Positions 45,203 through 64,000 of a stretch of DNA of 64,000 nt are shown here, in pieces. A program made the position numbers and the translations under genes. The DNA is from an uncultured Alistipes sp. Its GTDB lineage: Bacteria; Bacteroidota; Bacteroidia; Bacteroidales; Rikenellaceae. The notes beneath the pieces were generated by a model that saw only the letters and a list, made by a program, of their open reading frames with translations, made no database searches and was not told the DNA's origin. Position 1 is the first letter of the stretch; every line of letters begins with the position of its first letter. The stretch is from positions 3,803 through 67,802 of the forward strand of contig CALUIG010000002.1 of assembly GCA_944320625.1 (NCBI GenBank), given 5' to 3'.

Positions 45203-47257
45203 GTGTTCCGATCTGCCGCCATCCTGCTTGCGCTGCTCTGCACCGGGCCCGTCCTTGCGCAGCACGACTCCACGGCCCGCACGGTGGCCATCGAGCAGGT
45301 CGAGATCGCCGGCGTGCGGCCGATGAAGGAGATCGGCGTACAGCGCACCGTACTCGACAGTGCCATCCTGCGCGAAAACATCTCCTCGTCGCTGGCCGAC
45401 GCCCTGAGCAGCGGATCGACCCTCTTCATCAAGTCGTACGGACGGGCCACACTCGCCACAGCCTCGTTCCGCGGCACGGCACCCTCCCACACCCAGGTCA
45501 CCTGGAACGGCATGAAGATGAACTCCCCGATGCTCGGACAGGTCGACTTTTCGCTCATCCCCTCCTACTTCGTCGACGACGCCTCGATCTACCACGGAGC
45601 CAGTTCCGTGGGAATCACCGGCGGCGGGCTGGGCGGGGCCATCACCCTGGGCACGAAGGAACCCGACGCCCAAGGCTTCTCGATGCGCTACGTGCAGGGA
45701 GTCGGATCGTTCACCACCTTCGACGAGTTCCTGCGGCTCAGTTACCGCGGCGAGCGCTGGAGCTCCTCGACGCGTGTGCTGGTCAGCACCTCGGAGAATG
45801 ATTTCCGCTACCGCAATTACGATTCGAAGCAGTTCGTCATCGGAGCCGACGGGCAGATCTCCGGCGACTACTACCCCCTGCAGCGCAACCGCAACGGCGC
45901 ATTCCGCGACCTGCATCTCCTGCAGGAGCTCTACTACACCTCACGCCAGGGCGACCGTTTTTCGCTCGCGGCCTGGTACCTCGACACCGACCGCGGACTG
46001 GCCATGCTCTCCTCGGACCGCAACACCACGCGCGAAAAACGCAACTCCCAGACCGAACGGACCCTGCGGGCCGTTGTCTCCTGGGACCGGCTCTTCGGCG
46101 GACTGAAAGCCGGCGTACGGGCCGGGTACACCTACGACGACCTGCGCTATCTGATGGAGTCCGATCCCGACGGACTGGGCAACTTCACCCCCATCACCGA
46201 TGCACGCAGCCGGATCCACACCTTTTTTGCCCGGGCCGAAGCCGAATATGCCCCGAACGAAAGGTGGATGTTCGCAGCCAACGTCTCGGCCCATCAGCAC
46301 CGGGTCCACAGCGGCGATCTCTCGCTCATCGACGCCACGTCGGGACGCCGCGCCGACACGCTCTACCGCCAGCAGCGGTTCGAACTCTCGGCATTCGCCT
46401 CGGCCAAATGGCGCCCCGTCCCGCGCCTGGGCATCGCCGCCGACCTCCGCTGGGAGCTCTACGGCAACCGCACCACGCCCCTCATCCCGGCACTGTTCGT
46501 CGACTGGCTGCTCGCCCGTCGCGGGAATGTCGTCCTGAAGGCCTCCGCAGCCCGCAACTACCGCTATCCGACGCTCAACGACCTCTATTTCCAGCCGGGA
46601 GGCAATCCCGATCTCGATCCCGAACGCGGCTGGACATGGGATACCGGCATCGAATCGTCGCTCAAAAACAGCCGCAGCTCACTGCGACTCTCGGCAACGG
46701 CCTTCGATTCGCGCATCGATGACTGGATCCTCTGGATCGCAACCGCCAAGCAGGGCGTCTACACCCCGATCAATATCCGCCGCGTGCACAGCTACGGTCT
46801 CGAAGGAAAACTCGCCGCCTCGACCGTCACCTCCGGCGGCTGGCGTCTCCTATTCGACGGAAACCTCGCCTGGACCCGTTCGATCAACCGCGGAGACAAG
46901 TTCTCCGAGGCCGACGAGTCGGTCGGCAAGCAGCTGGTCTACATTCCGGTCTGGTCGGCAGCCTGCACGGCCCGCGTGATGTGGCGTCGGTGGGAACTGA
47001 GCTACAAGTGGCAGTGGTACAGCGAACGCTTCACCATGTCGGACAACAACCTCGGTGTGCTGGGGCGCGTCGCCCCCTATCTGATGAACGACATCGCCCT
47101 GGAAAAGAGCCTCGAATTCCGGCATCTCGACCTCTCGATCAAGGGCTGCATCTACAACCTCTTCAACGAGGAGTACCAGTCGGTGCTCGGACGCCCCATG
47201 CCGCGGTTGAATGCCGCCGTGTTCATCGGGATTACGCCGAAGTTCGGAAAGCGATGA
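45203..47257 (+). CDS. btuB: TonB-dependent receptor, BtuB-like
   Basis: FIKSYGRATLATASFRGT..HTQVTWNG plug; PTLNDLYFQPGGNPDL; follows btuG behind a B12 riboswitch. GTG start approximate. Confidence 0.8.
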   Translation: MFRSAAILLALLCTGPVLAQHDSTARTVAIEQVEIAGVRPMKEIGVQRTVLDSAILRENISSSLADALSSGSTLFIKSYGRATLATASFRGTAPSHTQVTWNGMKMNSPMLGQVDFSLIPSYFVDDASIYHGASSVGITGGGLGGAITLGTKEPDAQGFSMRYVQGVGSFTTFDEFLRLSYRGERWSSSTRVLVSTSENDFRYRNYDSKQFVIGADGQISGDYYPLQRNRNGAFRDLHLLQELYYTSRQGDRFSLAAWYLDTDRGLAMLSSDRNTTREKRNSQTERTLRAVVSWDRLFGGLKAGVRAGYTYDDLRYLMESDPDGLGNFTPITDARSRIHTFFARAEAEYAPNERWMFAANVSAHQHRVHSGDLSLIDATSGRRADTLYRQQRFELSAFASAKWRPVPRLGIAADLRWELYGNRTTPLIPALFVDWLLARRGNVVLKASAARNYRYPTLNDLYFQPGGNPDLDPERGWTWDTGIESSLKNSRSSLRLSATAFDSRIDDWILWIATAKQGVYTPINIRRVHSYGLEGKLAASTVTSGGWRLLFDGNLAWTRSINRGDKFSEADESVGKQLVYIPVWSAACTARVMWRRWELSYKWQWYSERFTMSDNNLGVLGRVAPYLMNDIALEKSLEFRHLDLSIKGCIYNLFNEEYQSVLGRPMPRLNAAVFIGITPKFGKR

Positions 47258-52477: not shown

Positions 52478-52643
52478 GCAAGGTTCCCAGCCGGCGGCTG
52501 CCGGCCCGGGATCAAAAGGGAACTCCTGTGCAAATCAGGGACTATGCCCGTAGCTGTAAGCTCCGAAAAAGGCTGCACACTCTCTGCCACTGTCCTGTGG
52601 GGACGGGAAGGCGTGCGGCGGGAGCGAGTCAGAAGACCTGCCT
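52478..52643 (+). ncRNA. Cobalamin riboswitch
   Basis: AGGTTCC..AAAAGGGAACTCCTGTGCAAATCAGGGACTATGCCCGTAGCTGTAA..GCCACTG..GGGAAGGC..GAGTCAGAAGACCTGCCT; TATCTTTG at 52463-52470. Boundaries approximate. Confidence 0.93.
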
Positions 52644-52829
52644 TGCCGAACCGGCCGAAACCCTCGGGATGTCAGGGCAACGCCGCAACTGTTTTTACTT
52701 TTTTTGAACATACGATCCCCGGTACGACGGCCTGTCGTACGACGTTCCGTGCACCCCCTTTGCGCCGTGCCGGAGCCGTTCGCCCGTCTGCCGGAACGAT
52801 TGTGCAAACCCTAAACTCATTGGACCATT

Positions 52830-54965
52830 ATGGGCATTTCGGAACTCTACATCGTCAAGCGCGACGGAAAACGAGAGGCTTTCTCCGTCGAAAAGATCAA
52901 ACGCGCCGTCAGCAAGGCCTTTCTCTCCGTAGGCGGATACGCCACGGACGATGACCTCACGGCCATACTCAGCCGTGTGCACGTCGCCGACGGAATGTCC
53001 GTCGAGGAGATTCAGAACCAGGTCGAGGTGGCCCTGATGGCCGAGCACTGTTTCGCCGTGGCCAAAAGCTACATGCTCTATCGCCAGAAGCACACCGAAG
53101 AGCGCGAGGAACGTGAAAAACTCCGCTTCCTCACCGACTACTGCGCCGCCTCGAACCCCGCCTCCGGATCGAAGTACGACGCAAACGCCAACGTCGAAAA
53201 CAAGAACATCGCCACCCTGATCGGCGAACTCCCCAAACAGAACTTCATCCGCCTGAACCGCCGCCTGCTCACCGACCGAATCCGTGAAATGTACGGCAAG
53301 GAGCTGGCCGACAAGTACATCCACCTGCTCAAAAGCCACTTCATCTACAAGAACGACGAAACCTCGATGGCCAACTACTGCGCCTCGATCACGATGTACC
53401 CCTGGCTGCTCGGAGGAACGATCTCCATCGGCGGAAACTCCACCCGGCCCACGAACCTCAAGTCCTTCTGCGGCGGATTCGTCAACATGGTCTTCATCGT
53501 CTCGTCGATGTTGTCCGGAGCCTGCGCCACCCCCGAGTTCCTCATGTACATGAACTACTTCATCGGACTGGAGTACGGCGAGGACTACTACACGCGCGCC
53601 GACGAGGTGGTCGACCTCTCGCGCAAACGCCGGACCCTCGACAAGGTCATCACCGACTGCTTCGAGCAGATCGTCTACTCGATCAACCAACCCACCGGAG
53701 CCCGGAACTTCCAGGCCGTCTTCTGGAACGTCGCCTACTATGACCGCTACTATTTCGAGGCGCTCTTCGGGGAGTTCCGATTCCCCGACGGTTCGCGTCC
53801 CCACTGGGAGTCGCTCTCGTGGCTGCAGAAGCGCTTCATGCGTTGGTTCAACCGCGAACGGACCCGCACCGTACTCACCTTCCCCGTCGAGACGATGGCC
53901 CTGCTCACCAGGGACGGCGATGTCCTGGACCGCGAATGGGGCGACTTCACCGCCGAGATGTATGCCGCCGGGCACTCCTTTTTCACCTACATCAGCGACA
54001 ACGCCGACTCGCTCTCGTCGTGCTGCCGCCTGCGTAATGAGATCCAGGACAACGGCTTCAGCTACACGCTCGGGGCCGGAGGCGTCTCCACCGGTTCGAA
54101 GAGCGTGCTGACGGTCAACCTCAACCGCTGCATCCAGAATGCCGCACGCAACGGCATGCACTACCTCACCTTCCTGGAGGAGGTCGTCGACCTCACGCAC
54201 AAGGTCCAGACCGCCTACAACGAAAACCTCAAGGAGCTGCAGGACAAGGGGATGCTGCCGCTGTTCGACGCCGGATACATCAACCTCTCGCGGCAGTATC
54301 TGACCATCGGCGTCAACGGGCTGGTCGAGGCCGCCGAGTTCCTCGGCATCGAGATCAACGACAACGACCGCTACGCCTCGTTCGTCGAGGAGGTGCTGGG
54401 GCTCATCGAGCGATACAATCACAAATACCGTTCGAAGGAGCTGATGTTCAACTGCGAGATGATCCCCGCGGAGAACGTCGGCGTCAAGCACGCCAAATGG
54501 GACCGTGAGGACGGTTATGCCGTGCCGCGCGACTGCTACAACTCCTATTTCTACGTCGTCGAGGACCCCTCGCTGAACATCATCGACAAGTTCCGCCTCC
54601 ACGGACGCCGCTACATCGAACACCTCACCGGAGGTTCGGCCCTGCACATGAACCTCGAGGAGCATCTCTCGAAAGAGCAATACCGCCACCTGCTGCGCGT
54701 GGCCGCTGCGGAAGGGTGCAACTACTTTACGTTCAACATTCCGAATACGGTCTGCAACCGCTGCGGGCACATCGACAAACGCTATCTGAAGGAGTGTCCG
54801 GAGTGCCACTCGACAGACATCGACTACCTCACGCGCGTGATCGGATACATGAAACGCGTCTCGAACTTCTCTGCCGCACGCCAACAGGAGGCCGCACGCC
54901 GCTTCTATGCCTCCGCGGAGAAGTCCCCCGAAAACATCCGTCCGGAAAAAGCCGCCAACGCATGA
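52830..54965 (+). CDS. nrdD: Anaerobic (class III) ribonucleoside-triphosphate reductase
   Basis: ATP cone IVKRDG; SCCRLRN; zinc site CNRC..CPEC; glycyl-radical loop TRVIGY. Confidence 0.95.
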   Translation: MGISELYIVKRDGKREAFSVEKIKRAVSKAFLSVGGYATDDDLTAILSRVHVADGMSVEEIQNQVEVALMAEHCFAVAKSYMLYRQKHTEEREEREKLRFLTDYCAASNPASGSKYDANANVENKNIATLIGELPKQNFIRLNRRLLTDRIREMYGKELADKYIHLLKSHFIYKNDETSMANYCASITMYPWLLGGTISIGGNSTRPTNLKSFCGGFVNMVFIVSSMLSGACATPEFLMYMNYFIGLEYGEDYYTRADEVVDLSRKRRTLDKVITDCFEQIVYSINQPTGARNFQAVFWNVAYYDRYYFEALFGEFRFPDGSRPHWESLSWLQKRFMRWFNRERTRTVLTFPVETMALLTRDGDVLDREWGDFTAEMYAAGHSFFTYISDNADSLSSCCRLRNEIQDNGFSYTLGAGGVSTGSKSVLTVNLNRCIQNAARNGMHYLTFLEEVVDLTHKVQTAYNENLKELQDKGMLPLFDAGYINLSRQYLTIGVNGLVEAAEFLGIEINDNDRYASFVEEVLGLIERYNHKYRSKELMFNCEMIPAENVGVKHAKWDREDGYAVPRDCYNSYFYVVEDPSLNIIDKFRLHGRRYIEHLTGGSALHMNLEEHLSKEQYRHLLRVAAAEGCNYFTFNIPNTVCNRCGHIDKRYLKECPECHSTDIDYLTRVIGYMKRVSNFSAARQQEAARRFYASAEKSPENIRPEKAANA

Positions 54966-56964: not shown

Positions 56965-57702
56965 ATGGAAATCTTCTGGAATACGATCGCCGACTACAAC
57001 GCCGCCACCTGGCCCGCACAGCTGCTGCTGACAGGAATCGGTGCCGTACTGACCCTTTTGCTTTACAAACGCCCCTCGGACGCCGTGTGCACGGCCATGA
57101 AGATCTACATGGCGGCACTCAACTTCTGGATCGCCGGCATCTACTACCTCGTCTATGGCGGGCCCCGGGAATACCACCGCATGCTGGCACTCTTCTGGGC
57201 CATCATGGGCTGCATCTGGATCTACGACCTCGTGGTGAAGCACGCCTCGCTCTCCCGAAAAGGCCATCATACGCTCTTTGCAGGCATACTTTTTGTCATG
57301 CCGCTCGTCTATCCGCTCGTCTCGCTGGCCCTGGGCCGCACATTCCCGATGATGACCTCACCCGTCATGCCCTGCTCGGTAGCCGTATTCACCATCGGGC
57401 TGATGCTGGCCTTTGCGGAACGGGTCAACATCGTCCTGGCCATGTTCCTCTGCCACTGGGCACTGATCGGGCTCTCAAAGGTCTATTTCTTCGGAATTCC
57501 CGAGGACTATCTGCTGGCATGCAGCGTCGTGCCGGCCCTCTATCTCTTCTTCCGCGAATACATCCGCAGCCTCGCCGGCAGCGCATCGAAACCATCGCCT
57601 CGCGTACTGAATGCCCTGTTGGTGGTTCTCTGTGCGATCATCGGCGGGTTCTTCGTCTTCACGCTGCTGCACCAGTTCAACCTTTTCACGGAGACAATAT
57701 AG
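56965..57702 (+). CDS. Membrane protein (DUF6064-like)
   Basis: FWNTIADYNAATWP, PCSVAVFTIG, GIPEDY; about 7 TM segments. Confidence 0.75.
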   Translation: MEIFWNTIADYNAATWPAQLLLTGIGAVLTLLLYKRPSDAVCTAMKIYMAALNFWIAGIYYLVYGGPREYHRMLALFWAIMGCIWIYDLVVKHASLSRKGHHTLFAGILFVMPLVYPLVSLALGRTFPMMTSPVMPCSVAVFTIGLMLAFAERVNIVLAMFLCHWALIGLSKVYFFGIPEDYLLACSVVPALYLFFREYIRSLAGSASKPSPRVLNALLVVLCAIIGGFFVFTLLHQFNLFTETI

Positions 57703-57912
57703 TCCCGCAACCAAGGCTCCACACACTTCGAAAGGCCGACAATCTTCCCGATTGAGCGGCCTTTTTCCGTCATGTTCCACCCGTCCGCGGCACACTATGC
57801 AGCGAATCATACCGGGACATGTCAATATTTCACATCCATGCCCGCAGAGCCCGGTCTTCGTCCGTTTCGAATTACAAAAAAAGCCCGATCGCAACGCGTC
57901 GGGTTATAAATC

Positions 57913-58118
57913 TATCTCCTTTTAAGAGATCGAGTCGGTTGGGGACAAAGATAGTAAAAAAACGGTTCCACGGTCATTCCACGTTACAATTTTTTGCGTT
58001 CCGGGTTACGGAAAATCTGCACGATTATCGGTTTGTTGCCCGGAAAAACTCGTCCACTCCTGCTCGAAACCCCGGAGAACCGGTTACAGATTGAAATAAT
58101 ATCTCTTAAAAGGAGATA
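57913..58118. promoter_or_regulatory. Candidate invertible promoter: 18-bp inverted repeats flanking a 170-bp segment with an outward-facing -7 element (OFF for susC)
   Basis: TATCTCCTTTTAAGAGAT (57913-57930) is the exact reverse complement of ATCTCTTAAAAGGAGATA (58101-58118); TATCTTTG on the minus strand at 57946-57953. Confidence 0.8.
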
Positions 58119-58147
58119 TTAACAATTATTAACTCAAATTTCAGCTT

Positions 58148-61100
58148 ATGAGAAAATTTGTACTATCGTTAGTCGGACTGCTTGTCATCGCAAGTTTTGC
58201 CTTGGCTCAATCCAAGCAAGTCCGCGGACGGGTCGTCGACGAAAACGGAACTCCGGTGATCGGAGCCACCGTCGTGGTCAAGGACAATCCGACGATCGGA
58301 ACCTCCACCGATGCAAAAGGCGAGTTCATTCTCAAGAACATCCCCGCCGGCCCGAATCAAAAACTGCAAATATCCTTTATCGGCTACAAAACCCAGGAAA
58401 CCGATGTCAAGGAACGGCTCTCCATCCAACTCGAACCCGATGCTCAGGCCGTTGAAGCCGTCGTCGTCACGGGTATGACCAAAATCGACAAACGACTCTT
58501 CACCGGAGCCTCCGACCGACTCGTCGCCGAAGACGTCATCCTCAGCGGTATGGCCGACGTCAGCCGTTCGCTCGAAGGACGTGCCGCCGGTGTCTCCGTG
58601 CAGAACGTCTCCGCGACGTTCGGTACTGCACCCAAAATCCGCGTGCGTGGCGCAACCTCCATCCTCGGCAGCTCCAAACCCCTCTGGGTCGTCGACGGTG
58701 TGATCATCGAAGACGTGACCGAAGTCAGCGCCGACGAACTCTCCTCGGGAGATGCCGTCACGATGATCTCCTCGGCCATCGCCGGTCTCAACTCCGATGA
58801 CATCGAGAGCATCAACATCCTGAAGGATGGATCCGCAACCTCCATCTACGGTGCCAAGGCCATGGCCGGCGTGATCGTAGTCACCACCAAGAAGGGTCGG
58901 CCCGGGACTACGAGATTCAACTACACCGGCGAGTTCACCACCCGTCTGAAACCCGATTACAGCCAGTACAACATCATGAACTCCCAGGACCAGATGAGCG
59001 TCTATCAGGAACTGGCCAAAAAGGGCTATTTCAACTTCGCTGAGACTCTCCGTGCCAAAGAGTACGGCGTATACGGCAAAATGTACAGCCTGATCAACAC
59101 CTATGACCGGACCTCCGGACTCTTCGGACTCGACAACACCGAAAGTGCCCGGAACGGGTACCTCCGCCTGGCCGAGTACCAGAATACCGACTGGTTCGAC
59201 TTGCTGTTCCAGAACTCCGTGATGATGAACCACTCGGTCAGCGTCTCCACCGGTACGGAACGCTCCACGTCGTACATGTCCATGAGCGTGATGACAGACC
59301 CGGGCTGGTATGAGCGCAGCAAGGTCAACCGTTACACGTTCAATGCCAATACGACCTTCAAGATCCTGGACAATCTGAGTCTGAACATCCTCGGAAACGG
59401 AAGCTACCGAAAACAGGAAGCCCCCGGTACGCTCAGCCAGGATGTCGATGCCGTGAACGGCGAAATCAAGCGCGATTTCGACATCAACCCCTTCAGCTTC
59501 GCCATGAATACCTCCCGGACGCTGGACCCGGACGAGGATTACGTCCGTAACTACACCTCGTTCAATATCTTCGAGGAGCTGAACAACAACTACATCGAGA
59601 TGGATGCCACCGACATCCGTTTCCAGGGCGAACTCAACTGGACGATCATCCCCGGACTGGAATTCAACTCCCTGGCCTCGTTCCGGTACACCTCGACCTC
59701 GATGCAGCACCACATCAAGGACGATTCGAACCAGGCTCGCGCCTACCGCGAAATGTCCGACGCCGTGATCCGCGACAAGAACCCCTATCTCTACGACGAT
59801 CCCGACGAACTGAATGCCCTGCCCGTCTCGATCCTCCCCAACGGCGGTATCTACGAGAAGCGGGAATACAAGTCGCCCAGCTACACCATCCGTAATGCGA
59901 TCACCTGGAACAAGTCCTTCAACGACATCCACCTGCTCCACCTCTACGGCGGTATGGAGATCACCTCGGTAGAGCGTACAAACGACTGGTTCCGCGGCTG
60001 GGGACTCCAATATAACCAGGGCGAACAGGCCTTCTACAACTACCTGGCATTCAAGAAATCCGCAGAAGACAACGCCGACTACTTCACCCTCTCGAACACG
60101 CGTCGCCGCTCGGCGGCCTTCTTCGCCATGGCCAACTACTCCTACAAGGGCCGCTACTCGATCAACGGAACGATCCGCTACGAGGGCACCAACCGTCTGG
60201 GCAAGGACCGTTCGGCCCGCTGGCTCCCGACCTGGAATGTCGGAGGCGCCTGGAACCTCCACGAGGAGAAGTTCTTCGAACCGATCGAACGGGTCATTTC
60301 CCACCTGACCCTCAAGGGTTCCTACAGTCTTACGGCCGATGCCGGGCCCGACTACATCTCCAATTCGAGTGTCATCATCCAGAGCTACAACACACCCTAT
60401 CGCCCGACCGCCGGCGACAAGGAGACCGGACTGCAGATCTCCATGCTCGGAAACTCGGCCCTGACCTATGAAAAGAAGCACGAGTTCAACCTCGGACTCT
60501 CCTCCGGATTCCTCAACAACCGCATCAACCTGGAGTTCGACATCTACTGGCGCAACAACTTCGACCTGCTGGGTCGGACCAACACCCAGGGTACGGGCGG
60601 TGAAATCTGGAAATACGCCAACATCGCAGACATGAAGTCGCGCGGCGTGGAGTTCACCCTCTCGACCCGGAACATCCAGAAGAAGAATTTCAAGTGGACA
60701 ACCGACTTCACCTTCTCCTGGAGCGAACAGGAGATCACCAACCTGCACACCGATGCCAACATCATCAACCTGGTACAGGGTACGGGTTACAACCTCGAAG
60801 GTTATGCTCCCTATTCGCTCTTCTCGATCCCGTTCAAGGGCCTCGACACCGAAGGATTCCCGATATTCGAGATCGGAGGCCAGACCATCACCAAGGAGAA
60901 CTATTCGAGCATCAACTTCCAGAACACGGACGAAGAGGTGCTCAAAACGCTCAAGTATGAAGGACCGACCGATCCGGTCTATACCGGAGGCTTCGGCAAT
61001 ACGCTTACCTACAAGAATTTCCGACTCAATATCTTCATGACCTACGGATTCGGCAACGTCGTGCGCATGAACCAGATCTTCAAGTCCTCCTATTCGGACT

Positions 61101-61495
61101 TCTACGCCATGTCCGACGAGTTCAAGAACCGCTGGATGGTACCCGGCGACGAGGCCCGGACCAACATCCCCACGATCGCCAGCCAGCGTCAGTTGACCGA
61201 ATACGGAGCCCTCTACATGCAGCGGGGCTACAACGCCTACAACTATTCGAGCGCCCGGATCGCCAAGGGCGACTTCATCCGCATGAAGGAGATTTCGCTC
61301 ACCTACGACTTCCCGAAGAGCTGGATCAAGAAGGCCAAACTCGAAAACCTCTCCCTGAAGGTCCAGGTGACGAACCCCTTCCTGATCTACGCACACAAGT
61401 CGCTGAACGGACAAGATCCCGAATACTATCAGTCGGGTGGCGTTTCATCGCCTCTGGCCCGCCAGTTCACCTTTACCCTGAAATTCGGATTCTAA
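58148..61495 (+). CDS. SusC/RagA-family TonB-linked outer membrane protein
   Basis: Signal peptide; CarboxypepD_reg-like N-terminal domain; IRVRGATS, DIESINILKDGSATSIYGAKAMAGVIVVTTKKG; C-terminal Phe. Confidence 0.95.
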   Translation: MRKFVLSLVGLLVIASFALAQSKQVRGRVVDENGTPVIGATVVVKDNPTIGTSTDAKGEFILKNIPAGPNQKLQISFIGYKTQETDVKERLSIQLEPDAQAVEAVVVTGMTKIDKRLFTGASDRLVAEDVILSGMADVSRSLEGRAAGVSVQNVSATFGTAPKIRVRGATSILGSSKPLWVVDGVIIEDVTEVSADELSSGDAVTMISSAIAGLNSDDIESINILKDGSATSIYGAKAMAGVIVVTTKKGRPGTTRFNYTGEFTTRLKPDYSQYNIMNSQDQMSVYQELAKKGYFNFAETLRAKEYGVYGKMYSLINTYDRTSGLFGLDNTESARNGYLRLAEYQNTDWFDLLFQNSVMMNHSVSVSTGTERSTSYMSMSVMTDPGWYERSKVNRYTFNANTTFKILDNLSLNILGNGSYRKQEAPGTLSQDVDAVNGEIKRDFDINPFSFAMNTSRTLDPDEDYVRNYTSFNIFEELNNNYIEMDATDIRFQGELNWTIIPGLEFNSLASFRYTSTSMQHHIKDDSNQARAYREMSDAVIRDKNPYLYDDPDELNALPVSILPNGGIYEKREYKSPSYTIRNAITWNKSFNDIHLLHLYGGMEITSVERTNDWFRGWGLQYNQGEQAFYNYLAFKKSAEDNADYFTLSNTRRRSAAFFAMANYSYKGRYSINGTIRYEGTNRLGKDRSARWLPTWNVGGAWNLHEEKFFEPIERVISHLTLKGSYSLTADAGPDYISNSSVIIQSYNTPYRPTAGDKETGLQISMLGNSALTYEKKHEFNLGLSSGFLNNRINLEFDIYWRNNFDLLGRTNTQGTGGEIWKYANIADMKSRGVEFTLSTRNIQKKNFKWTTDFTFSWSEQEITNLHTDANIINLVQGTGYNLEGYAPYSLFSIPFKGLDTEGFPIFEIGGQTITKENYSSINFQNTDEEVLKTLKYEGPTDPVYTGGFGNTLTYKNFRLNIFMTYGFGNVVRMNQIFKSSYSDFYAMSDEFKNRWMVPGDEARTNIPTIASQRQLTEYGALYMQRGYNAYNYSSARIAKGDFIRMKEISLTYDFPKSWIKKAKLENLSLKVQVTNPFLIYAHKSLNGQDPEYYQSGGVSSPLARQFTFTLKFGF

Positions 61496-61516: not shown

Positions 61517-63019
61517 ATGAAAAAAAACATATTGCATACCTCATGTAAATACCTCCTGCTGTTGTCGGGATCGGCGCTGCTCTTCGCTTCGTGCAACAAG
61601 TTCCTCGACGAAATGCCCGACAACCGCACGGAACTCGACAATCCGGACAAGATCACTCAGATGCTGGTCTCGGCCTATCCCTATATGCCGGCGAACCTCC
61701 ACGAACTGATGTCCGACAACGTCACGGACTACAGCAAGAACGTCGACATCTATGACGCCATGTTCGAGGAGGCCTACCTCTTCCAGGAGACAACCGACGA
61801 GGCCCAGGATTCCCCCTCCTACGTCTGGGAGGAGAACTACAAGGCCATCTCCGCCGCCAATCACGTCCTGGAGGCCATCGAGAACTACGAGGGCAGCGAG
61901 GACCTTTCGGCCCAGAAGGGCGAAGCACTCCTCTGCCGGGCCTATGCGCACTTCATCCTCTGCAACACCTTCTGCCAGGCCTACAATCCCGAATCGAGTG
62001 CCACGGACCTCGGAATCCCCTACATCACGGAGCCCGAAACAACCGTCTTCACCGAACACGGACGCGAAACCGTGGCTGAAGTCTACGAGAAGATCGCAAA
62101 GGACCTCGAAGCCGGTCTGCCGCTGATCGACGACAACCTCTATTCACATCCGAAATACCACTTTACGAAGAAAGCGGCCCATGCCTTCGCCTCGCAGTTC
62201 TACCTCTATTACGGCAAGTACGATCTGGCAATCTCGAATGCCGACCAAGTAATCGGTGAGGACCCGACCTCCCTGTTCCGCAACTGGGATCTCTTCACCG
62301 GGACCTCGTCGACCGAATACGCCAATGCCTACAACTCCTCGGACGAAGCGGCCAACATCTTCATCGTCGGATTCGGATCGGCCCATCCCCGGTTCCTCTA
62401 CGGCCGCTATATCCACACCTTCCAGCTGCAATCGGAAGTAGGACGAAGCCAGGGACCTTGGGGCAGCGCTCTGGATCCCTATTCGATCGCCTATGTATTC
62501 TCCAGCCGCAGCTATTTCATGCCGAAAATCACCGAATACTTCATGTACACGGATGTCGCAAACGGAATCGGATACCCCTATGTCACGCTGGTGGTATTCA
62601 CGACCGAGAAGACGATTCTCAACCGTGCCGAGGCCTATGCCCTCTCGGGAGAATACGATCTGGCGGCCCGCGACCTAAACTACTTCTACCGTCAGGCCGG
62701 CGCCAACACCTCGCTCAGCGCCGATGAGATCGCCGACTTCTACGAAACGGCGAATTCGAGTCTCAAGAAACCGCTCGCGCCCCGATTCACCCTGGAGCCC
62801 GGCAAGCAGACCAATCTGGTCCACGCCTGTCTGCACGCTCGCCGTATCGTGACCATCATGGAGGGCGGACGTCTGGAGGACCTCAAACGTTACGGCATTG
62901 CCTATACGCACGAGGTAGACGGTGCATCGAACATCGAAATCGAGCCCTACGACAAGCGTCTGGCCGTCCAGCTTCCCAAAGCGGTAGTAGCCGCCGGCAT
63001 GGAGCCCAACCCGCGTTAA
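61517..63019 (+). CDS. RagB/SusD-family lipoprotein
   Basis: Lipobox LFASCNKFLDEMPD; KGEALLCRAYAHF, DLGIPY, LNRAEAY, DLKRYG. Confidence 0.93.
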   Translation: MKKNILHTSCKYLLLLSGSALLFASCNKFLDEMPDNRTELDNPDKITQMLVSAYPYMPANLHELMSDNVTDYSKNVDIYDAMFEEAYLFQETTDEAQDSPSYVWEENYKAISAANHVLEAIENYEGSEDLSAQKGEALLCRAYAHFILCNTFCQAYNPESSATDLGIPYITEPETTVFTEHGRETVAEVYEKIAKDLEAGLPLIDDNLYSHPKYHFTKKAAHAFASQFYLYYGKYDLAISNADQVIGEDPTSLFRNWDLFTGTSSTEYANAYNSSDEAANIFIVGFGSAHPRFLYGRYIHTFQLQSEVGRSQGPWGSALDPYSIAYVFSSRSYFMPKITEYFMYTDVANGIGYPYVTLVVFTTEKTILNRAEAYALSGEYDLAARDLNYFYRQAGANTSLSADEIADFYETANSSLKKPLAPRFTLEPGKQTNLVHACLHARRIVTIMEGGRLEDLKRYGIAYTHEVDGASNIEIEPYDKRLAVQLPKAVVAAGMEPNPR

Positions 63020-63052
63020 TGGCTATCCAAAACCCTAAAAAGATTGTTCATC

Positions 63053-63991
63053 ATGAAAAAAATACTGCTTTACAGTCTCATGTTGACGTTCGGGGCATTC
63101 GCCACGACCGCCTGCGACGACGAGTCGCTGAGCTCCACGAGCGTCATCACCAATTCGGTCAACATCGAAACCGAATTCGACAAATGGCTCGAGGAGAACT
63201 ACCGCGCGCCCTACAACATCAACTTCTACTATCGCTACGAGGACATCGAAACGGACATGACCTACGATCTGGTCCCCGCCAAGGAGATCTACAGCCGCAT
63301 CCTGGCCAAGATGATCCGCTTCCTGTGGATCGATCCCTACACGGAGGTCACCGACATCCACTTCATGCGTGAGAATTCGCCCCGGATCATGCAAGTCATC
63401 GGCTGCGGAGCCTACAACAGCAACAACACGTTGCAGCTGGGTACGGCCGAAGGCGGTCAGAAGATCACACTCTACGTGGGCAACTGGCTCGAGGACTTTC
63501 TGAAAATCGACTATACGAACCGATCGAACGAGGACGACGGTTATACCGTAACGATCACCGACGTGGACATGATCAACCATTATTATCTGCATACCATCCA
63601 CCACGAGTTCGCCCACATCCTGAACCAGAAGATCGAATACTCCACCGACTTCAACACCATCTCGCAGAACGACTACGTGGCCCAGTGGAACACGCTCAAC
63701 GAAAGCGAGGCCGCAGAGATGGGATTCGTCAGCCCCTATGCTTCGAGCGCCTCGGGCGAGGATTTCGTGGAGGTATTCTCCTACTACCTGACCTGGAGCG
63801 AAGCCGAATGGCAGGCCAAACTCGAACAGGCCGGAACGAGCGGGGCCGATCGCATCGAGCGCAAACTGGCTATCGTGAAGTCCTATATGGCGGACAACTG
63901 GAACATCGACATGGACCAGCTCCGCGAGGTACTGGCCCGCCGCTACCAGGAGATAGATATGCTGGATTGGTCAAACTTTAATGCCGAATAA
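63053..63991 (+). CDS. Putative zinc-binding metallopeptidase lipoprotein
   Basis: Lipobox ATTAC; GTAEGG, HHEFAHIL (HExxH), GFVSPYA, EDFVE. Another ATG follows at 63997, at the window edge. Confidence 0.88.
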   Translation: MKKILLYSLMLTFGAFATTACDDESLSSTSVITNSVNIETEFDKWLEENYRAPYNINFYYRYEDIETDMTYDLVPAKEIYSRILAKMIRFLWIDPYTEVTDIHFMRENSPRIMQVIGCGAYNSNNTLQLGTAEGGQKITLYVGNWLEDFLKIDYTNRSNEDDGYTVTITDVDMINHYYLHTIHHEFAHILNQKIEYSTDFNTISQNDYVAQWNTLNESEAAEMGFVSPYASSASGEDFVEVFSYYLTWSEAEWQAKLEQAGTSGADRIERKLAIVKSYMADNWNIDMDQLREVLARRYQEIDMLDWSNFNAE

Positions 63992-64000
63992 ACAACATGA

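Follow-up and report, generated by a model that had tools for sequence, protein, structure and literature searches.

The window (the whole stretch of 64,000 nucleotides analyzed here) belongs to an assembly of 2.29 Mb in 213 contigs (86.6% complete, 59.5% GC; genome G000 in our comparisons). It ends in the first genes of a SusC/SusD operon, and upstream of these lie ThrE and DUF6064 genes and an intergenic region in which two inverted repeats enclose a putative promoter. The features are given below, with X numbers denoting public sequencing runs.

57730..57767, plus strand: predicted terminator (hairpin and T-run after the DUF6064 gene, -17.6 kcal/mol) that would insulate susC from read-through
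57876..57903, minus strand: predicted terminator (hairpin and 7 T, -11.3 kcal/mol; z -1.74 over 75 nt, statistically weak), where transcription in the OFF direction would end
57913..57930: left recombination site (IRL), with ATCTC at 57914-57918, spacer CTTTTAA at 57919-57925, and GAGAT at 57926-57930; inverted contigs join here
57931..58100: invertible segment of 170 bp, OFF in the window; reversed in contigs of X8, X9, X14, and X17, with a short junction end in X15
57946..57953, minus strand: predicted Bacteroidota -7 promoter box TATCTTTG, with a T-run before it; position kept in 12 of 12 aligned susC-type interiors
57984..57993, minus strand: element resembling AAAATTGTAA, some 30 nt upstream of the -7 box, in a conserved alignment block; it may be an upstream promoter element or a protein site
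58084..58096: degenerate copy of a TTAC-N5-GTAA palindrome, which in relatives lies just inside the promoter-distal repeat; it may be an accessory site
58101..58118: right recombination site (IRR), ATCTC-TTAAAAG-GAGAT with arms reaching 9 bp; predicted to lie within the leader of the ON transcript
58148..61495, plus strand: SusC/RagA TonB-linked outer membrane protein, 1115 aa (TIGR04056 E 2.9e-189, also Pfam; nearest solved chains 8YPU/8YPT, E ~1e-99)
61517..63019, plus strand: SusD-like lipoprotein, 500 aa (PF14322; nearest solved chain 8YPT_A, E 4.7e-13)
63044..63991, plus strand: substrate import-associated zinc metallohydrolase lipoprotein (Peptidase_Mx1; PF15890; TIGR04549 E 7.5e-96)
63997..64000, plus strand: start of a DUF4302/DUF4987 lipoprotein gene (433 aa) that continues beyond the window (locus L293)

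Beyond the window, a BACON-domain gene (439 aa, also in L293) continues the operon, yielding the five-gene order susC-susD-zinc metallohydrolase-DUF4302-BACON, among which no glycan-degrading gene was seen. The solved structures 8YPT/8YPU are those of ButCD, and the accessible part of that report proposes that SusCD loci containing peptidases import proteins or peptides (PMC11467351). By analogy, the operon likely encodes a peptide or protein importer. A separate TonB-dependent receptor is encoded at 45203-47257 of the window. Positions 52535-52830, upstream of nrdD, hold what we take to be a cobalamin-riboswitch-like leader (candidate).

The earlier note had described perfect 18-bp inverted repeats with 170 bp between them and a right site built of 9-bp arms around an asymmetric 7-bp spacer, and both descriptions are exact: the repeats occupy 57913-57930 and 58101-58118, 170 nt apart, and the right site reads TAATATCTC (58097-58105), TTAAAAG, and GAGATATTA (58113-58121). 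The left site has the same arm-spacer-arm layout (ATCTC-CTTTTAA-GAGAT), and both conform to ATCTC-N7-GAGAT with perfect arms and spacer kept in each. Resampling the 445-nt intergenic region 2000 times (first-order) produced no perfect repeat longer than 14 bp, so that none of the 2000 reached 15 bp by chance. The search for further copies that the note had proposed returned only these two 18-mers in the assembly and no others at up to three mismatches; a SusC/SusD shufflon of the Tsr0667/BT1041 type, by comparison, has extra repeats and silent susC cassettes. Likewise, no ATCTC-N7-GAGAT site was found upstream of the 31 other susC-like matches in the assembly.

From the stop codon of the upstream gene to the ATG of susC (57703-58147), TATCTTTG on the minus strand is the only TAnnTTTG, and none is aimed at susC in the window's orientation. 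As claimed before, it faces away from susC at 15 nt from the left repeat, and the susC ATG lies 29 nt past the right repeat. A canonical TTTG -33 box is absent for TATCTTTG at the usual spacing. The sigma-70 scan is ill-suited to Bacteroidota promoters. A terminator scan detected neither of the two predicted hairpins (57876..57903 and 57730..57767), and no hairpin plus T-run matching the OFF terminator was seen in seven relatives that were folded. A known small RNA behind the OFF promoter was considered and rejected, as 57600-58250 gave one chance-level Rfam match (E 0.13, far below gathering).

Public DNA assemblies from bird and other guts provide direct evidence of inversion. Of 24 listed runs, 20 contain the stretch or part of it, and eight of them, from five studies, were compared as assembled contigs rather than reads. 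The interior is flipped exactly at the repeats in four of the eight, lies as in the window in three (X5, X7, and X10), and shows mixed junction ends in one. In X8, a single contig of 19,080 bp (depth 20.8) carries 57931-58100 strand-reversed and joined to its flanks at the two repeats. X9 and X14, from the same study, are flipped as well (leaving aside an X14 record of 49 nt whose end resembles an adapter), and in these three runs the flipped form is the assembled majority at depth 7-32. It is also present in a second study, where X17 shows the two flipped joints, the shorter side of each spanning 90-92 nt, among the pieces listed. The contigs of X15 break at the repeats: one ends in 12 nt of the flipped left junction, and two others carry the unflipped left junction (8 nt of flank) and the unflipped right junction (12 nt of interior). 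The left flank of X15 is a single contig with a single set of differences (one SNP haplotype), and its evidence for both orientations comes from contigs only and reaches 8-12 nt past the repeat, below the 31-nt bridging guide. The RNA-labelled runs X19 and X20 contain only 0.08 and 0.06 of the words, respectively, and count as no evidence.

The segment really inverts between its repeats, and the test for inverted forms that the earlier note had put forward came out positive in X8, X9, X14, and X17. It is intergenic, it is bounded by inverted repeats, a promoter-consensus box near one of them points outward, and both orientations are present as DNA with their joints at the repeats, all of which are hallmarks of an inverton. 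The five runs bearing the flipped form share differences at 57437, 57531, 57681, and 57723, which are lacking in the window, X5, X7, and X10. X5 differs from the window at two positions, and in X7 and X10 a change of base 57913, outside the core, shortens the repeat to 17 bp. Since the flipped copies all sit on one haplotype that differs from the window's, we infer, rather than observe, that the window's own strain still switches.

Similar switches occur in related genomes. The two-site pattern was found in 12 of 376 same-genus genomes (none for a reversed-pattern control), and nine two-site susC switches were examined (G000, G170, G167 with two copies, G101, G121, G148, G039, and G138). All nine were assembled OFF (G148 with one arm mismatch), and their spacers match inside each pair and mostly differ between species. 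Across 12 aligned interiors, the -7 box with its T-run, the AAAATTGTAA-like block, and the TTAC-N5-GTAA palindrome near the far repeat are conserved. Metagenome contigs show both states: a human-gut relative that shares the core site and has an integrase next to its switch is ON in two contigs (L038 and L072) and OFF in five (L059, L061, L063, L100, and L108) as well as in its genome locus L004 (six of eight OFF). A sibling type is OFF in three of three metagenome contigs, and another species is ON in L047 (an indel-rich contig) and OFF in L112. A metagenome scan with the exact 18-mer returned 82 stretches, none of them from the window's species; 13 had a susC or integrase match or a partner site, and the remainder were set aside as chance.

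On a broader scale, we collected 141 distinct ATCTC-N7-GAGAT pairs (at least 122 stretches from a species-genome scan plus 14 genus loci, with L286 left out), some from related genomes and hence non-independent. Among the matches listed, the spacers are mirror-identical in 97 pairs (48 distinct spacers), direct in 19, and unrelated in 25. A TAnnTTTG within 20 nt of a repeat accompanies 88 of the 97 mirror-spacer pairs versus one of the 44 others, and those 88 boxes, again among the matches listed, point outward through one repeat. Strand exchange across the spacer predicts matched spacers such as these 48, and an operator would not need them. Among the matches listed, such switches are widespread in Bacteroidaceae, Prevotellaceae, and Muribaculaceae (L117-L238), often with no integrase detected within 3 kb and with varied neighbors, including (by eye) UpxY-like regulators.

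The surroundings of the sites offer some further observations. Over positions 58083-58165, which take in the right site, the leader, and the first codons, the window shares 89% identity with the susC region of G170 (L003), with only ~25% identity between the proteins. The orthologue in G031 (L002/L247), 87% identical, has no repeats and no TAnnTTTG in the 420 nt upstream. From these alignments, the switch plus leader looks grafted onto the window's operon. Elsewhere in the genus, G146 (L013/L246) has a single ATCTC-N7-GAGAT before susC with a forward -7 box and no partner site, and G092 (L019/L248) has a degenerate site before susC. One query found no family integrase in either genome, and these single-site relics are possibly switches fixed ON. 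G039 (L245) carries a second inverted repeat pair (13 bp, 167 nt apart, 1313-1505) just upstream of its susC switch (1972-2173), which by analogy with pMMCAT may form a tandem switch.

No recombinase gene adjoins the window's switch, in line with the earlier placement of the enzyme outside the window; the upstream neighbor is DUF6064, and the best integrase-remnant match upstream of the left repeat (E 0.02) falls inside that gene and was rejected. Four of the nine same-genus susC switches (the first copy in G167, G101, G121, and G148), on the other hand, have a ~400-aa tyrosine recombinase (PF13102, PF00589, PF17293) directly upstream, ending 21-36 nt before the left repeat, with the G101 and G148 matches covering only the last ~300 residues. 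The form of the sites, ascribed before to tyrosine recombinases, is that of a published Bacteroidales tyrosine-invertase family. In a quick tree, from which four duplicate rows were dropped and to which we give low weight, the four adjacent integrases group with those of G039 and G138 (support 93). The latter two are each flanked by a tRNA on one side and a yebC-like gene on the other and have no site near them; the switches of these genomes are on other contigs. In G167, the second switch differs by one spacer base and has no integrase in 18 kb. Given these lone switches in G039, G138, and G167, action at a distance is the simplest reading. The available text of earlier studies describes precedents: BF2766/Tsr19 acts on distant promoters (PMC4747536), and two cross-acting Phocaeicola vulgatus enzymes, BVU2677/BVU2684, reach distant promoters as well (PMC12940148).

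The window's assembly has four PF00589 matches: a XerD-like and a XerC-like protein, a broken mobile-element integrase on contig C90, and a 403-aa protein on contig C119. The last is the only strong match in the assembly to a 48-row family profile, and XerC, XerD, and the C90 integrase were dismissed as belonging to the wrong family. The C90 gene (L115 1462-2436, minus strand) is interrupted by a stop codon and lies ~4 kb from xerC. Next to the C119 gene is its own pair of 19-bp repeats, 167 nt apart (C119:3149-3353, locus L116), with the segment between them assembled in the ON orientation, facing a DUF3575 gene and other genes of fimbrial type; judged from its layout, this segment is likely a second invertible promoter. 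No integrase of the susC-linked branch was found in the window's assembly (86.6% complete) or in G170, which has the closest site (86% complete). The place next to the yebC-like gene, where G039 and G138 have theirs, is unoccupied in the window's assembly, and the matching tRNA is at a contig end. The cognate gene may be unassembled, or the C119 enzyme may cross-react.

Tyrosine recombinases act as four subunits on four arms and exchange strands across the spacer. Applied to this locus, one recombinase subunit would be bound per ATCTC/GAGAT arm, strands would be exchanged across the asymmetric 7-nt spacer, and identical spacers in inverted orientation would lead to inversion; two switches whose spacers differ would not recombine with each other. 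In the OFF state of the window, the -7 box would fire leftward, giving a short transcript into the terminator hairpin, and the second hairpin would block read-through from upstream, leaving the operon silent. In the ON state, the right site would follow the box after 15 nt and become part of the leader, and the ATG would follow the box after 62 nt; orientation would in this way set susC transcription. The purpose could be to hedge bets on a large surface importer whose cargo is probably peptides or proteins and which may also be an entry point for phages or protein toxins. In short, we consider it quite probable that the 170-bp segment, whose inversion is observed, serves as an ON/OFF promoter switch for the five-gene operon and that a predicted tyrosine invertase of ~400 aa, encoded elsewhere in the genome, flips it.

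The repeats could also be repressor or activator operators, with the inverted contigs being assembly or library artefacts. Each site is indeed palindrome-like and near a promoter, and template switching at inverted repeats can yield rare chimeras. Inverted contigs joined at the exact repeats nevertheless remove an operator-only reading, and as artefacts they would have to make up the assembled majority in three runs of one study and recur in a second. Moreover, the assemblies were presumably built with 31-mers, longer than the 18-bp repeat, and mirror-identical spacers, unneeded by an operator, are nonetheless present in 97 pairs among the matches listed. We regard this explanation as extremely improbable. 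A frozen switch would be another matter: the window's lineage may have lost the cognate recombinase, with orientation being a strain polymorphism and only some strains switching. The restriction of flipped forms to one haplotype, the OFF-only state of X5, X7, and X10, the missing susC-branch integrase, and relics that look locked ON (G146, with its one site, forward box, and no family integrase found) all speak for it. Against it, the arms and spacer are perfect at both sites, each OFF haplotype is represented by a single compared run, and contigs drop minority forms. In addition, most assembled copies of the relative whose integrase adjoins its switch are OFF too, and the window's assembly is 86.6% complete and split over 213 contigs. 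Taken together, we deem a frozen switch quite unlikely.

The 403-aa C119 integrase might serve both its own fimbrial-type switch and the susC switch, the two being separated by their spacers. This sub-case of the preferred reading, a distant invertase acting on the susC promoter, we put forward tentatively, as a possibility to which we lean less than halfway. The enzyme is the only family member in the assembly, its catalytic-region motifs are intact and match those of a relative's enzyme, and its own sites (TTTC/TCTC-TTCTCAA-GAGAA/GAAAA) share inner arm bases with the susC switch. On pMMCAT, two adjacent invertible promoters with different spacers lie behind one invertase gene (10.1101/2024.04.29.590671), and cross-acting paralogues have been published (PMC12940148, accessible part). 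However, the enzyme falls in another branch (support 98) than the susC-linked integrases (93), by the quick tree only, and the sites of its branch are mostly GAGAA rather than GAGAT, with the exception of two enzymes there that have ATCTC/GAGAT sites. A bolder extension of the distant-invertase reading, which we judge unlikely, would have a stand-alone "master" invertase of this genus, located away from any switch, flip orphan promoters for which the 7-nt spacer is the sole distinguishing mark, with a promoter-plus-leader cassette grafted between unrelated susC genes; here it would gate a ButCD-like protein importer and let part of the population close the door to protein toxins or phages.

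A real DNA switch was recognized here from sequence alone. Its mechanism is textbook for Bacteroidales, which limits the surprise. For other Bacteroidales, the accessible parts of PMC10939037, 10.1101/521070, and 10.1101/2024.11.17.624012 describe inversions close to SusC/SusD genes, as well as selection by phages acting on surface genes that vary in phase. No description of this locus or of an Alistipes susC switch was found among the papers listed, and earlier supplements may list the site type or a related Alistipes locus; the available portions of PMC11602134 and PMC12632263 contain no such locus, and the ATCTC-N7-GAGAT motif gave no match in main texts. The 48 spacers in 97 pairs (among the matches listed) offer a test bed for how one recombinase family keeps its switches separate, and following the operon's orientation across metagenomes of the poultry gut could report on pressure from phages or toxins.

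Among known systems, ButCD of B. fragilis is the closest for the operon, as it provides the best solved-structure matches of both SusC and SusD, and it is likewise a SusCD locus with a zinc peptidase, no glycan genes, and proposed protein or peptide import. On the present evidence (moderate scores) it is not an orthologue; its gene order differs, and the available text of its description reports no ButCD in Alistipes and leaves phase variation unmentioned (PMC11467351). For the switch, the B. thetaiotaomicron BT1927 S-layer system (PMC4611039, 10.1101/521070, accessible parts) has a comparable design of 5-bp arms and a 7-nt spacer in a 17-nt imperfect palindrome with a varying mid-part, is mostly OFF, and targets a surface protein. 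It differs in its GTTAC-N7-GTAAC arms (ATCTC/GAGAT in the window, which sets the latter apart from the BT1927/Tsr26 type), its adjacent recombinases, and its S-layer lipoprotein target. B. fragilis Tsr19/BF2766 with IVp-I/IVp-II and P. vulgatus BVU2677/2684 similarly invert distant promoters that lack an enzyme of their own, but the available text gives their repeat motif as TACTTNNNANGTAANNGAA and their targets as EPS and fimbriae (PMC4747536, PMC12940148).

The nearest relatives by site are the gut Bacteroidales invertible promoters IP-ARG-1/2/3 (Yan, Hall, Jiang 2022, PMC8748976) and the pMMCAT eps promoters (10.1101/2024.04.29.590671), here compared on the accessible parts of both sources. 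The repeats of IP-ARG-2 are ATCTC-N7-GAGAT with two different spacers and a 404-aa invertase, whereas classes 1 and 3 have shorter TCTC-N7-GAGA motifs. The IP-ARG segments are of similar length to ours, and their 401-404-aa invertases share N- and C-terminal motifs with the integrases found here (by eye, in the visible sequence). They are carried by conjugative elements, immediately follow their invertase gene, and drive genes for resistance or glycans, whereas the window's switch has no adjacent invertase and no sign of a mobile element and precedes a SusC/SusD operon. The pMMCAT invertase shares 58.6% identity with the C119 enzyme and 52% with a relative's susC-linked enzyme and is by sequence of the same ~400-aa tyrosine recombinase family; the pMMCAT repeats are of the TTTCTC-N7-GAGAA type, 178 nt apart; locking that switch ON changed the phenotype. 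Unlike the window's switch, it is plasmid-borne with the enzyme in cis, has T rather than A as the outer arm base, and controls exopolysaccharide. Judged by its (A/T)TCTC-N7-GAGA(T/A) sites with mirror-identical spacers, the switch described here belongs with this IP-ARG/pMMCAT-type family, without the usual adjacent invertase, a neighbor that the mechanism does not require. With it, the range of this Bacteroidales invertase family would come to include operons for SusC/SusD transporters in Alistipes.
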